A program made the translations under genes and the position numbers. DNA of 64,000 nucleotides, from the NCBI RefSeq assembly GCF_022846255.1, contig NZ_AP025682.1; one strand, written 5' to 3'. The notes beneath the pieces were generated by a model that made no database searches, had not been told where the DNA came from, and worked only from the letters and a program-made list of their open reading frames with translations. Within the stretch, counting starts at the first letter, position 1, and every line of letters starts with the position of its first letter. Source of the stretch: Escherichia coli. Its GTDB lineage: Bacteria; Pseudomonadota; Gammaproteobacteria; Enterobacterales; Enterobacteriaceae. Shown here one piece after another: positions 444 through 5,989 of the stretch.

Positions 444-467
444 AAAGACTTATCAATTTCGGAAGTG
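444..467. repeat. Left copy of a 23-bp direct repeat (AAGACTTATCA[A/G]TTTCGGAAGTG) bracketing the recombinase/regulator module
   Basis: 22/23 nt identical to 4195..4218 in the same orientation; read directly from sequence. Confidence 0.7.
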
Positions 468-496
468 TATCCGGTCAGTACGTAACGTTACAGCGC

Positions 497-1114
497 TTAC
501 AAAAACGTCCTGTTCATTATCCATGCAATATCATTCCGGTTTCTCAGACCGATTTTAAATATCGCCTTTTGTCGGTAGTAACACACATTGCTGTAATGTA
601 TCTGCATACGCTTTGCAATATCACTTACAGTTTCACCGCCAAGAAGTGCATTTATCACCTGTCGCTCATTAGCACTTAAACGCTGAAATCTATACCCACT
701 ACTTATATAGCGAGAAGGCACGGTCAGAATGCGCAGAAAAATATTTTTCAATTGATGAAAGCTTTGTGACGGAGAAATCCAGGTAAAAGGATATTTGATA
801 TTATTCTGCCCTCCCTGATGGCCAAATAAAATGCATGGAGTCCCTCTCAGTTCGTGGCGTTCAGAATAAAGGACTGACAGATTCCACAAAAACCACAAGG
901 CCTTCACAATCACTGATGACTCATGGCAGGTGAGATCTACCACAATGACACTCTGTTTCCCGGGGAGGTGTCTATCAGACAGAATATGCGACACAATCTG
1001 CTCCGGTGTTTCCACGGAATTAACCTGAACAGCATGTTGCCCGGCACTTTCCATCACTGCAAAAAGCCCGAGGCGGGTGTACTGACACTGACTCATCAAA
1101 AATATCTGTTTCAT
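497..1114 (-). CDS. LuxR/FixJ-family HTH transcriptional regulator (C-terminal LuxR-type helix-turn-helix; N-terminal domain of unclear type)
   Basis: ORF 205 aa; C-terminus LSANERQVINALLGGETVSDIAKRMQIHYSNVCYYRQKAIFKIGL fits the LuxR-type HTH pattern; ATG at 1114 overlaps the stop of the upstream gene (ATGA), suggesting translational coupling. Confidence 0.6.
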   Translation of the reverse strand: MKQIFLMSQCQYTRLGLFAVMESAGQHAVQVNSVETPEQIVSHILSDRHLPGKQSVIVVDLTCHESSVIVKALWFLWNLSVLYSERHELRGTPCILFGHQGGQNNIKYPFTWISPSQSFHQLKNIFLRILTVPSRYISSGYRFQRLSANERQVINALLGGETVSDIAKRMQIHYSNVCYYRQKAIFKIGLRNRNDIAWIMNRTFL

Positions 1115-1575
1115 CCGTATTTTGTCAGCTCCTGAGGAGCCTGTTCATTCCGTTTTCTCGATACCATCCACTGACGTAGTTTCTGAAATTTTGTCTGTGG
1201 CCTGAGTGACTGCTTTGCTGCGGGGGCAACAGGTTCCAACTGAACATCCAGTTCTGCTCCTGAACTGGCCGGGATTTCCTGCGGATCCTGTATATCCAGG
1301 ATCCGAAGAGCGCGTCTTCGTCCCGTTGTCGGTTCGTTCTGTATGAAGCGCCTGCTGCGGATATGGTTTCGTCCCTCGTGCTCAATGTAATACAGAATAT
1401 CTTTTGCTGTTCTCTGGGTTATATGAAACTCCCGGCTGACCGCCTCAACTGTCAGTAACCTGCCGGTTCGCATCCCCCAGAAGGTCACGATGATATACAG
1501 TGGTCGAGCCTGCATGTCCTGAACACACTCAGGACAGAAAAAATGTCTCTTTATTCGTCTGCGTCTCTCAGGCAT
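1111..1575 (-). CDS. CaiF/GrlA-family-like transcriptional regulator
   Basis: ORF with ATG at 1575 preceded by AGGTGG RBS (track ORF starts 3 codons earlier at an alternative start); segment RPLYIIVTFWGMRTGRLLTVEAVSREFHITQRTAKDILYYI resembles the CaiF N-terminal HTH region (KPLYLLIAEWMM...AREISIHFDIEHSKAVNTLTYIL) from memory. Confidence 0.5.
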   Translation of the reverse strand: MPERRRRIKRHFFCPECVQDMQARPLYIIVTFWGMRTGRLLTVEAVSREFHITQRTAKDILYYIEHEGRNHIRSRRFIQNEPTTGRRRALRILDIQDPQEIPASSGAELDVQLEPVAPAAKQSLRPQTKFQKLRQWMVSRKRNEQAPQELTKYG

Positions 1576-1941
1576 ACCCGCCACCTGAATATCTCTCCGT
1601 CAGAAGTATGAATTAAGAAGCATTGACATCCCTCCCCCCAGTAATTACAACAAACATCTGTTGCCGCATGTGTCGGGTTATCAGTGCTGAGTAACGCGCA
1701 ATACAGGTGCACAAGAAGAGGATCTGTTGTTGTCAAAATGACCCATTTTGACAACAACAGATTAAAAAACTAGATTTTTGCTATTGTCTGGTTTTATTTT
1801 CTTAGCTGTGTGGCGTTTTTGGCTGTTCATACTATTAATGGAGTTTTGGAGAATTCAGAAAACTGACAGACATCAATGCCATATTGTTACAGAAGGGATT
1901 TGATACGGGAGTTTTATTGATTTAAATCAAACAATTTTTAA
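1576..1941. promoter_or_regulatory. Intergenic control region between the recombinase gene and the regulator operon; candidate invertible promoter segment with perfect 19-bp palindrome (1722..1762) and embedded TTGACA-17-TAGATT promoter-like element
   Basis: ATCTGTTGTTGTCAAAATG / ACC / CATTTTGACAACAACAGAT perfect inverted repeat; TTGACA at 1748..1753, 17-nt spacer, TAGATT at 1771..1776 on the plus strand; GCATTGA (1620..1626) and TCAATGC (1872..1878) form a 7-bp inverted repeat around it. Confidence 0.4.
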
Positions 1942-2604
1942 TTAATTGTTGTTTGCATAACCTGTGTTTTTTAACATTTGTAACCTCAATACAGGCAGTT
2001 TACAGTTTGGGTCAAAAAGTTGCTTTTTCGCCCTTTTTGACGGCTTCCATAACCGTTCAAAGCGGGCCGAATTTGAAGCTGTATAAATCACCGTATGCCG
2101 GATATTCCGGTGTCCCAGGTAATCCTGAATCAGGCGTGTATCGATGCCGTTATCTGCCAACGCGTAACCACACCCATGTCTCAGCATATGTGGATGGACA
2201 GCAACAGCCAGCCCGGCATTTCTTCCTGCTTCAGCCAGCAAGTTATAAAAACGTTGACGGGTAAGCGGACGCCCTGATCTGGAAATAAATAGCCAGTCCC
2301 TCTCTTCTTCTGCTGCAGGCAATTTTATAGTTTCCCGGGCTTTGAGCCAGTTCCTGATACATTGTACTTCTTCAGTCAGTAAGGGATGCACGGTACTGAA
2401 GCCGTTTTTCAGGCGCCGAACGCACAGCTTTCGGGACTCGAGCTCAAGGTCAGCAAGACGTAACGAAAGCATTTCGCTGACCCTGAGTCCGTGGATAAAA
2501 GCAAGAAGAATCATGCAGGCATCACGTTCCGGGTGGTGCCCCTTCAGCACCGCCCGTAACAAAAGGCTGACTTCATGGTGAGTAAGAAATTTTCGGGAAG
2601 ACAT
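1942..2604 (-). CDS. FimB/FimE-family site-specific tyrosine recombinase (paralog 1, with C-terminal extension)
   Basis: 220 aa; conserved recombinase blocks IHGLRVSE, RRLKNGFSTVHPL, HPHMLRHGCGYALA, DTRLIQDYLGHRNIRHTVIYTA (catalytic R/H-x-x-R/Y arrangement); ATG at 2604 with GGAGCG RBS. Confidence 0.85.
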   Translation of the reverse strand: MSSRKFLTHHEVSLLLRAVLKGHHPERDACMILLAFIHGLRVSEMLSLRLADLELESRKLCVRRLKNGFSTVHPLLTEEVQCIRNWLKARETIKLPAAEEERDWLFISRSGRPLTRQRFYNLLAEAGRNAGLAVAVHPHMLRHGCGYALADNGIDTRLIQDYLGHRNIRHTVIYTASNSARFERLWKPSKRAKKQLFDPNCKLPVLRLQMLKNTGYANNN

Positions 2605-2733
2605 TAATCGCTCCGGTCAGATGAAACAGAGCGCTCAAGAGTGACACGATGCCCCCATCAGGCTATGGCTAAACGTGCTAAAGTCAGGAAAGCAGAATAA
2701 AACTCCGATTGCTCTTAAGAACAGTCAACTGGC

Positions 2734-4145: not shown

Positions 4146-4194
4146 ATTTCCTCCTATCAGAGTTATATGTAAATTTTACATTTTTAGATAAAAG

Positions 4195-4218
4195 GAAGAC
4201 TTATCAGTTTCGGAAGTG
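4195..4218. repeat. Right copy of the 23-bp direct repeat bracketing the recombinase/regulator module
   Basis: 22/23 nt identical to 444..467; lies 50-73 bp upstream of the recombinase-2 start codon. Confidence 0.7.
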
Positions 4219-4436
4219 GGTGTTGTAAGCGTTACCCGAACGCCGTATTGACGTTATCTTGCTTGGTCTTCAAAGACAATAAGTAAGCCCCTATACTGAG
4301 ACGTGGTGGAAAAATCAGTTTACATCCAGGGCAATAACTTCTTCACACGATGGTCGTTCGTTGGTGTGTAGTGGATCGGTAATTCAGGACACCTCGAAAT
4401 CCTGTTAATGTTAAAACAGTGAAAATGAGGTGATGC

Positions 4437-4754
4437 ATGATCAAAACTCGTCGGACTAAACGTACCTTTTCCCCGGAGTTCAAACTTGAAGCTATCGAGC
4501 AGGCGGTTAAATACCAGCGTGATGTCAGAGAAGTCGCGCTGGCACTCGAGCTCAACCCTGATCATTTGCGTAAATGGATACGGTTGTATAAGCAGGAACT
4601 TCAGGGTATTGAGCCCGCTGGTAATGCTATTACCCCTGAACAACGCGAAATTCAGCAGCTTAAAGCGCAGATAAAGCTCCCTGAGATGGAAAAAGAAATA
4701 CTAAAGCAAGCTGCCGTGTTGATGAGCAAAATCCCCGGTAAGCTGTCGCGCTAA
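4437..4754 (+). CDS. IS3-family transposase OrfA (HTH / leucine-zipper part)
   Basis: 105 aa, IS3-type OrfA pattern ([14 protein letters not shown]...[22 protein letters not shown]); located just inside IRL. Confidence 0.7.
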
Positions 4755-4780
4755 TCACACGGCTGAAAGTAAAGTGGCCA

Positions 4781-5590
4781 GTGCGGGTTCTTTGTCATTT
4801 ATTCGGTATTCACCGTAGCGTTTATTACATGCTGGTGAAGCGTCCTGTTAATGTGCAAAAAATTGAATTACGAAGTCGGGTGAGGGCTTTCCATGCTCTC
4901 AGTCGTGGCGCAGCCGGTAGCCTAGCATTCAGTCAGATGTTGCGCCAGAGTGGCGTTGATGCAGGCCGGTGGCTGGCACGACGGCTGATGCGGGAATGCG
5001 GGCTGACAGGTCGACAGCCGGTTAAACATCACTACCGGGTAAACGAAGACAAAAGTCCGCCATTGCCAAATATACTGAACCGGCAGTTTAACCCCGCCGC
5101 ACCAGACGCGGTCTGGTGCGGCGACATCAGTTTTATTCGCCTGCAGGACAAATGGTGTTATCTCGCGCTCGTTGTTGATTTATATTCACGTCGGATTATC
5201 GGTTCAGCCCTCCCATTAACCGCTGATGCTGAGTTGGTGTGCAGGGCTTTGCGTAATGCACTGGAAACACGACCGCGTGATGACCGCCTGCTGTTTGATT
5301 CAGAGCAATGTGTTCAGTATAAATGCAATAAATACAGAAAGTTACTCTGGCGTTATGGGGTAATGCAAAGTATGAGTCGCAGAGGGAATTGCCTGGATAA
5401 TTCGCTGATGGAAAGAGTCTTTCGCAGCCTTAAAAGTGAATGGCTTCCGAAAGGTGGTTATGGTGATTTTAGCCATGCGGTACGAGATATAAACCCGTGG
5501 ATTAATGGTTATTACAACGTTTATCGACCTCACACGAACAACGGTGGTTTACCGCCTTGCTTACATGAACAGGTTATCCCGGTGTCCTGA
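4781..5590 (+). CDS. IS3-family transposase OrfB (DDE integrase core); frame is open from 4742, in -1 frame relative to orfA
   Basis: [20 protein letters not shown]-terminal block typical of IS3 OrfB; DDE-like blocks [37 protein letters not shown]. Confidence 0.7.
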
Positions 5591-5989
5591 TTTTGTGATC
5601 CACTACAAGTTATATGTGCTTGACTTTATGATTTTTTAGTTAAATAGAATAATTGGTGCAACTTTAAAGTCTTTTCTACTTAAAGGATACAACTTTATTG
5701 GCTCTACACAATTGCAGCGAAGTCGTCCTGAGCTATTTCCGAAAGATGAAAATTATTAGAGTCGCATTAAAAATGAGCTAATTTTGATAGTGGTTATCTT
5801 GTGATTATTTTCTAATGAGCCTGTGAACTGAAACCCTCCATGCTTAATATAAGGTGGAGGGAAAGATGATTAAAACTCCCCCAGTGGCCAGATCTTTATA
5901 AAATATGAACAGGTTGAAAAAATCAGCAACTTTGCTGTTTATTTATACTTAACCACTATGCATTAATGCTGCGTTATTTCATGATACCT

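Follow-up and report, generated by a model that had tools for sequence, protein, structure and literature searches.

An ipuS-like invertible element as a probable phase switch of the tibDBCA adhesin locus in Escherichia coli

We analyzed a stretch of 64,000 nucleotides (nt) of an Escherichia coli genome (contig NZ_AP025682.1 of assembly GCF_022846255.1; hereafter the window), the left part of which carries an island with two tyrosine recombinase genes (rec1 and rec2), three regulator genes and an insertion sequence next to yhiM. At the 3′ end of rec1, and reaching towards the regulator gene tibD, lies a 276-base-pair (bp) invertible element that we provisionally call tibS and that is the subject of this analysis (Table 1). 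An original prediction made from the letters alone had proposed a phase-variation or excision switch in the island. Every open reading frame that it called is present where it had placed it, and profile searches support its assignment of the recombinases and of the CaiF/GrlA-type and LuxR-type regulators, confirming a CaiF_GrlA domain in TibD and a GerE/LuxR domain in TibB. Its description of the third regulator as a Rob-like AraC protein holds for the N-terminal DNA-binding domain, to which the match with Rob is confined (amino acids (aa) 7-122), and fails for the rest of the protein, the C-terminal half being unassigned.

Table 1. Features of the tib island and of the invertible element (window coordinates).
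Feature	Position	Strand	Remarks
tibC, 5′ end	1..173	-	autotransporter heptosyltransferase; colinear with annotated tibC/tibA of 06-00048 and H10407
26-nt motif, copy 1	442..467		sense strand CACTTCCGAAATTGATAAGTCTTTCT; tibB-tibC intergenic region
tibB	497..1114	-	LuxR/GerE-type regulator, 205 aa; D-B-C-A order as in H10407 (PMC8973357)
tibD	1111..1584	-	CaiF/GrlA-family regulator, 154-157 aa by start choice; overlaps tibB by 4 nt
tibD-proximal recombination site	1722..1762		19+3+19 palindrome without mismatch; the left inverted repeat is at its centre
Invertible element (provisionally tibS)	1739..2014		276 bp including the 7-bp inverted repeats
Left inverted repeat	1739..1745		TGACCCA
Candidate promoter P1	1748..1776	+	TTGACA-17-TAGATT (10/12)
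Interior palindrome	1917..1930		14 bp, perfect, TTGATTTAAATCAA; inside the element, ~60 nt upstream of the P2 start
rec1	1942..2604	-	recombinase 1 (Rec1), IpuA-like tyrosine DNA invertase, 220 aa in window orientation
Candidate promoter P2	1949..1977	+	TTGTTT-17-TAACAT; within the Rec1 tail-coding part
Right inverted repeat	2008..2014		TGGGTCA; inside the rec1 3′ end
AraC-family regulator gene	2734..3597	+	Rob-like N-terminal DNA-binding domain
rec2	3594..4145	-	recombinase 2 (Rec2), IpuB-like tyrosine recombinase, 183 aa
26-nt motif, copy 2	4193..4218		48-73 nt upstream of the rec2 start codon
IS3-family element	4367..5607	+	45-nt terminal inverted repeats; yhiM-side island edge
yhiM	6046..7197	-	
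Predicted ON junction, tibD side			GTCAAAATGACCCAAACTGTAAAC
Predicted ON junction, rec1 side			GTTGTCAAAATGGGTCAAAAAGTTGC

The CaiF/GrlA and LuxR regulator pair had been put forward as the undescribed output of a new switch. Judged by gene order and by colinearity with strain H10407, the pair is instead tibD-tibB of tibDBCA, a known adhesin locus of enterotoxigenic E. coli (ETEC). The window is colinear with H10407 through tibD, tibB and the start of tibC at ~98% nucleotide identity, and H10407 carries the four genes in the order tibD-tibB-tibC-tibA, the order of the annotated 06-00048 locus. The start codon of tibC is base 173 (the translation opens MSTLKNRFF) and the gene leaves the window on the left; tibA lies beyond that edge and was seen only in the colinear 06-00048 locus. 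Its product TibA is a long-studied adhesin and invasin of ETEC. The tibDBCA locus of H10407 was reported by Lindenthal and Elsinghorst (1999; as cited in PMC8973357 and PMC7545054), and reviews give the roles of TibD and TibB as undetermined (PMC7545054). Relative to the window, H10407 has the element in the opposite orientation, a rec1 truncated by IS600, and neither araC nor rec2; for these reasons, the reference strain cannot reveal the switch.

The whole arrangement is found in 7 of 5,426 complete E. coli genomes, adjoining yhiM and at ~97.5% identity. In most of these 5,426 genomes yhiN adjoins yhiM instead, the neighbour that the original prediction had given for K-12. Among the complete RefSeq genomes searched, none is more than 97.3% identical to the window over positions 1-7300. 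Rec1, Rec2, the AraC protein, TibB and TibD of the window are each matched exactly by a protein of one E. coli contig, on which the AraC protein has accession BDH31415.1 (locus tag TRECRb50_02310).

Rec1 and Rec2 match NCBIfam models for tyrosine-type DNA invertases (E values of 5e-76 and 2e-62, respectively), and their catalytic R-H-R-Y residues (R41, H139, R142 and Y174) do not vary when they are aligned with five characterised members of the family, FimB, FimE, IpuA, IpuB and IpbA/FimX. Rec1 is closest to IpuA (63.5% identity, including the tail FDPxCK..L.L), with 52-57% identity to FimB/FimE and 57% to IpbA, while Rec2 is closest to IpuB (66.5%). The last 22 codons of rec1 lie inside the invertible element, and inverting the element in silico shortens Rec1 from 220 to 200 aa, ending ...QLFDPF. 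The sequence of the tail varies considerably among variants. In the E. coli, Salmonella-plasmid and Citrobacter amalonaticus loci that we mapped, the AraC gene stands between the two recombinase genes.

A BLAST comparison of the window with H10407 places the inversion to the base. Positions 1-1743 are colinear, 1739-2014 match the opposite strand and 2010-2425 are colinear again, so that the junctions coincide exactly with the two 7-bp inverted repeats. The breakpoints at 1739-1745 and 2008-2014 replace the interval 1576-1941 that had been proposed for the inversion. In the H10407 allele the repeats read TGACCGA/TCGGTCA, both ends having changed with symmetry kept, as in a compensatory change. 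TGACCCA/TGGGTCA and a span of 275-277 bp are retained in all the variants that we examined from E. coli, Escherichia whittamii, Citrobacter, Salmonella IncHI1A plasmids and metagenomes. Within the 64-kb window, the only sites resembling recombination half-sites are those at 1722-1762 and 1996-2028; we had considered a second switch serving Rec2 and rejected it, given that no further half-site-like sequence turned up there.

The element occurs in both orientations within one allele. We looked up the exact predicted sequences of the two Rec1 isoforms against a collection of 15 billion proteins. For the 06-00048 allele, the predicted 200-aa form is on 7 contigs and the 220-aa form on at least 1000. 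In six contigs (L011-L016) the element is identical to that of 06-00048 at 276 of 276 positions, but inverted. Their flanks match 06-00048 at 3418 of 3418 positions on the tibD side and 2368 of 2370 on the recombinase side, and rec1, araC and rec2 are intact. Two of the inverted contigs (L012 and L013) adjoin yhiM, as the window does, and one (L011) has a plasmid-type context; that context also occurs in both states (L011 versus L022). At the level of sequence, an active switch would predict just such a picture, one allele in two states whose breakpoints are precise to the base; the picture is hard to reconcile with either an ancient fixed inversion or an assembly artefact. It also strongly supports the original proposal of a Fim-type phase-variation switch beside the recombinases.

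The likeness to IpuA-ipuS-ipuR that had been pointed out turns out to be homology, with identical core repeats and recombinases that are 63-66% identical. Battaglioli et al. (2018, PMC6083910) described ipuS as a 260-bp element with 7-bp repeats, the distal one being situated in ipuA. The OFF orientation encodes full-length IpuA and the ON orientation a form 11 residues shorter, both forms being active; transcription starts within the part of the element that encodes the IpuA tail, and in the ON state it drives ipuR, encoding a LuxR-type regulator, and upaE, encoding an autotransporter (PMC6083910). In uropathogenic E. coli CFT073 the ipuS core repeats are TGACCCA (L018:5743) and TGGGTCA (L018:6011), with a span of 275 bp against 276 bp in tib. 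The half-sites of the two systems are 84% identical over 44 nt, and the element interiors have largely diverged save for short conserved blocks. Both have the distal repeat within a recombinase gene, so that one orientation shortens the protein, and both have a LuxR-type regulator followed by an autotransporter adhesin downstream.

The two switches differ in other respects. The tib module adjoins yhiM and sits on islands or plasmids, whereas ipuS adjoins dsdC. The tib recombinase genes have the AraC gene between them and are not divergently arranged, and the CaiF/GrlA regulator TibD and the heptosyltransferase TibC are extra in tib. Inversion removes 20 aa from the recombinase in tib and 11 in ipuS, and the arms of the OFF-state palindrome measure 14-19 bp in tib against ~7 in ipuS. 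The tib module, unlike ipuS, further extends to Citrobacter and to plasmids of Salmonella. Because chromosomal site, output genes and extra components differ, sequence comparison indicates that the tib switch is a paralogue of ipuS and not ipuS itself; the identity of the core sites makes cross-talk between the two plausible.

The tib switch was also compared with other Fim-type systems. fimS shares with tib the recombinase family, a promoter-bearing element of ~300 bp whose inverted repeats are short, a pair of neighbouring recombinase genes and a recombinase transcript coupled to switch orientation, but its repeats are 9 bp long (TTGGGGCCA) and lie outside fimE, and its output is a fimbrial operon without intervening regulators. 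The hyxS system (FimX (IpbA)-hyxR-hyxA-hyxB) likewise has, in this order, a recombinase, a switch, a LuxR-type regulator and an autotransporter; it differs in that it has one recombinase only and repeats of 16 bp (PMC6083910).

Inside the element lie two candidate promoters that share one polarity. P1 is the sole sigma-70-like match between positions 1400 and 2800. It points away from tibD in the window and faces tibD in the ON-orientation loci of contig L012 and H10407. As the sole promoter of the system P1 was downgraded, since distant variants do not keep its -10 hexamer. At P2, aligning 13 variants shows that a TAnnAT hexamer is conserved together with a TTGTyT upstream of it, and the position is the one to which the ipuS promoter was mapped by 5′ RACE. 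The palindrome TTGATTTAAATCAA is among the best conserved interior blocks over the 13 variants, and its ipuS counterpart has three differences. Only in the H10407 orientation do P1 and P2 both aim at tibD, and no sigma-70-like promoter was found between the tibD-proximal repeat and tibD. Because the full-length recombinase marks the OFF state in ipuS, and because P1 and P2 point away from tibD, we consider the window orientation to be OFF with good, though not full, confidence. The discovery of TibA as an expressed glycoprotein was reportedly made in H10407, which has the opposite orientation. According to a 2026 preprint, it is not known at what level H10407 expresses TibA under laboratory conditions.

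Orientation also changes what could form in the RNA upstream of tibD. In the window orientation only, the minus-strand (tibD-sense) RNA of 1722-1762 is predicted to fold into a hairpin followed by CCUCUUCUU, a combination flagged as terminator-like. Its minimum free energy is -30.6 kcal/mol in a 91-nt context (z = -6.5). Across intact tib variants the OFF-state hairpin ranges from -16 to -25.5 kcal/mol, and inverting the element in silico abolishes it; a run of seven T follows it in Citrobacter. Outside an invariant inner 9 bp, the 14-19 bp arms co-vary (TTG/CAA, AAG/CTT, TGG/CCA and GGG/CCC), with three pairs changed on both sides, and further variants add CCG/CGG. In the H10407-like allele, which is apparently fixed in the other orientation, the mobile arm of the palindrome has decayed. 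The hairpin may be a terminator assembled only in the OFF state, where it would insulate tibDBCA from rec1 read-through.

We propose, at a probability of roughly 0.8, that 1739-2014 is a Fim-type invertible promoter element, paralogous to ipuS, that switches tibDBCA. Rec1, Rec2 or both would flip the element by crossover in TGACCCA/TGGGTCA. In the OFF state, presumably that of the window, the promoter or promoters of the element would be aimed away from tibD, with antisense transcription into rec1. Rec1 would be 220 aa long, and the hairpin would form from the outer arm and the inner arm of the site next to tibD, probably stopping read-through from rec1. In the ON state, the orientation of H10407, the promoters would face tibD-tibB-tibC-tibA, the hairpin would be taken apart and Rec1 would be 20 residues shorter. 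In this way the glycosylated adhesin TibA, together with the regulators TibD and TibB, would undergo ON/OFF phase variation. Of this scheme, the inversion, its precise breakpoints, the homology to ipuS and the two isoforms of the recombinase are shown, and the terminator role of the hairpin and the choice of the acting recombinase are inferred.

Several points weigh against this proposal. The evidence for both orientations compares different isolates rather than cells of one culture. A census of junction patterns in JGI metagenomes and GTDB genomes gave 9 hits, all 9 in the window orientation, and the H10407-like allele with full-length rec1 (P0006) occurs on many contigs in the short-form orientation only. 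Which orientation is ON, and where the promoters lie, are inferred from consensus matches and from the analogy with ipuS; the -10 hexamer of P1 is poorly conserved in distant variants, and P2 matches the consensus at 7 of 12 positions. The similarity of TibB to known switch-controlled regulators is weak (~19% identity to IpuR and ~25% to HyxR, E ~1e-4). The covariation score of the hairpin (0.145 against 0.069 in shuffles, with 0 of 500 shuffles reaching the observed value) rests on 8 sequences, and the symmetry of the palindrome could come from symmetric binding of the recombinase rather than from an RNA terminator.

Among the other explanations, the one that survives best is that the element flips and its main output is the recombinase itself: the choice between 220- and 200-aa Rec1, together with antisense transcription into rec1, would tune the directionality of inversion while tibDBCA would mainly depend on a fixed promoter. 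The right repeat does lie inside rec1, both isoforms exist, the tail motif FDPxCK..L.L is common to IpuA, and both candidate promoters run antisense into rec1 in the window orientation. We nevertheless think it improbable that this is the main output: IpuA is active in either form in ipuS, where the orientation governs ipuR-upaE transcription (PMC6083910), the sequence between the proximal repeat and tibD has yielded no sigma-70-like promoter, and the tail is variable. This explanation can also be compatible with a switch acting on tibDBCA.

Alternatively, the inversion could be an old fixed polymorphism between tib alleles, with recombinases that are relics or act elsewhere. Orientation in finished genomes sorts by lineage, which alone would be compatible with a single old event: 8 records whose rec1 is intact have the orientation of the window, and 13 ETEC-type records (H10407 and 12 others) are inverted, with rec1 truncated by an insertion sequence in 13 of 13. 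The uniform orientation of the 13 truncated records would also fit, as indirect support, a dependence of inversion on the recombinases. In five Salmonella IncHI1A plasmids the element is colinear with the window. The uniform census hits fit a fixed polymorphism as well (the junction of L033 is a sequence variant of the OFF junction), and so does the H10407-like allele, which was never found in the other orientation. That allele has the core TGACCGA/TCGGTCA and the Rec1 substitutions R112P and A179D, and it has the short-form orientation even with full-length rec1, araC and rec2, including in the complete chromosomes CP057983.1 and CP115173.1 (among L003-L010). Its predicted long (OFF) forms, looked up as four sequences, are absent from the protein collection, as is the ON form of the window's own allele. 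Against a fixed polymorphism stands the 06-00048 allele, found in both orientations with a 100% identical element, at the yhiM site (L012 and L013), together with the plasmid context found in both states. In addition, conservation across genera covers the core repeats, the span and the catalytic residues, and the experimentally proven ipuS shares the same sites. We give this explanation a slim chance as an account of the locus as a whole. With an active switch, the skewed census may mean that switching is rare or lineage-dependent, and the data on the H10407-like allele suggest a lineage that is locked or strongly ON-biased. By their sequence, the H10407-type ETEC genomes look locked ON.

The original prediction had also allowed for excision of 444-4218, and a five-gene cassette (~442-4218) might be excisable between 26-nt direct repeats, the recombinases then being excisionases or integrases. 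The repeats are real: two copies of the motif ACTTCCGAAAYTGATAAGT, matching at 24 of 26 positions, flank the tibB...rec2 cassette exactly. They look, however, like a conserved cis-element. The rec2-side copy opens a conserved, promoter-proximal block of the rec2 upstream regions from E. coli to Citrobacter, and the motif, whose ends form the dyad ACTT-N11-AAGT, does not resemble the half-sites used in recombination. The E. coli tib variants that retain rec2 have both copies, and H10407, which has lost rec2, keeps the tibB-side copy only. No cassette-less tibCA locus with a single repeat turned up, although no search was aimed at such loci. As a known family property, FimB/FimE-type proteins are without the arm-binding domain of integrases. 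Evidence for excision of 444-4218 was not found, and we regard excision as very improbable; it is possible, if speculative, that the motif is a shared operator linking rec2 and tibCA rather than an attachment site.

Least probable of all is that the flipped contigs are assembly artefacts of the palindromic site: most ON-state contigs of the 06-00048 allele do come from short-read Logan/ENA assemblies, five of them from the run series SRR308142xx, and one contig (L017) has an odd deletion at the same repeats, but the shared repeats, at just 7-19 nt, are taken to be shorter than the k-mers typical of assemblies, 13 finished ETEC chromosomes and the complete chromosomes CP057983 and CP115173 have the inverted state, and the breakpoints are base-precise and identical in independent samples.

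Contig L017 (Logan ERR5191683, 978 nt) is an observation in its own right. The whole element is precisely deleted (the equivalent of window 1740-2008), with a join as expected from recombination between the 14-nt repeats CATTTTGACAACAA, which are direct only in the ON orientation. It may represent a real locked, promoter-less variant or a collapse in assembly.

Returning to the promoter switch, a more elaborate version of it combines the hairpin and the 26-nt motif, and we offer it tentatively, as somewhat doubtful. Here, inversion would re-aim the promoter and at the same time assemble or dismantle an intrinsic terminator made of one fixed and one mobile arm. The 26-nt operator upstream of rec2 and tibC would couple TibB, TibD or the AraC protein to recombinase expression, and H10407 would be a naturally locked-ON mutant. 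Such a two-part promoter and terminator mechanism may not have been described for fimS, hyxS or ipuS. If H10407 is locked ON, this would explain why phase variation of TibA has gone unnoticed.

The kind of switch is well known, and its tib member appears to be new. In the full-text literature, with subscription journals outside the coverage, we found no description linking tib with an invertible element, phase variation or a recombinase. Also possibly new are the split terminator, AraC and CaiF/GrlA proteins as components, and the sharing of the 26-nt motif.

If the tibDBCA switch is real, TibA would be expressed heterogeneously, and be mostly OFF in culture, in strains with intact recombinases, which would affect assays and any antigen application of TibA. 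H10407, the reference strain, would then be atypical, since IS600 destroyed its recombinase and its orientation appears fixed. The switch network of uropathogenic E. coli (fimS, hyxS and ipuS) would extend to diarrhoeagenic E. coli, to Citrobacter and to conjugative Salmonella IncHI1A plasmids.

The module rec2-araC-rec1-switch-tibD-tibB-tibC-autotransporter is found on several chromosomal islands of E. coli, on Salmonella IncHI1A plasmids, in E. whittamii and in Citrobacter. In Salmonella the complete module, with tibA, an EAL-domain gene and a small helix-turn-helix gene, is carried by conjugative plasmids of ~246 kb in five isolates, among them the plasmid of a Salmonella 1,4,[5],12:i:- isolate (L022; NZ_CP044968.1, IncHI1A). 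It is 97.5% identical to the window over the 851-bp switch region (window 1450-2300), indicating that the ETEC adhesin locus and its switch move between genera. Plasmid pToe17-1 carries the module at ~81% identity, with araC disrupted by IS1. In C. amalonaticus (L028-L030), an extra gene for a BOF-domain (OB-fold) protein lies between the switch and tibD, and the module adjoins prophage tail-fibre genes. In Citrobacter sp. Cu233 (L036-L038), two contigs break off at one and the same rec1 3′ sequence, and the switch is on a contig of 496 bp. We had considered these breaks as inversion heterogeneity and set this aside; they look like two module copies collapsed by the assembler, which suggests two copies in one genome.

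A derived form of the locus is seen in E. coli PigCaeca_2 (L040; NZ_CP038857.1), which has an H10407-type island with a rec1 fragment (window 2111-2425, 99.7% identity) inside an open reading frame with an autotransporter annotation. A deletion there appears to have removed the switch and tibDBC and to have fused the rec1 remnant to tibA.

Of the remaining features, the IS3-family element has a colinear copy in 06-00048 that is annotated as a pseudogene, and no known RNA family reaches the gathering threshold in window 1-7300. Beyond yhiM, at 7397-9070, lies a gene of low GC content (~33%) for a 557-aa protein of the YhiJ/YhiL family (DUF4049-like); it has no NCBIfam match and belongs to the normal yhiM-yhiJ neighbourhood, outside the island.

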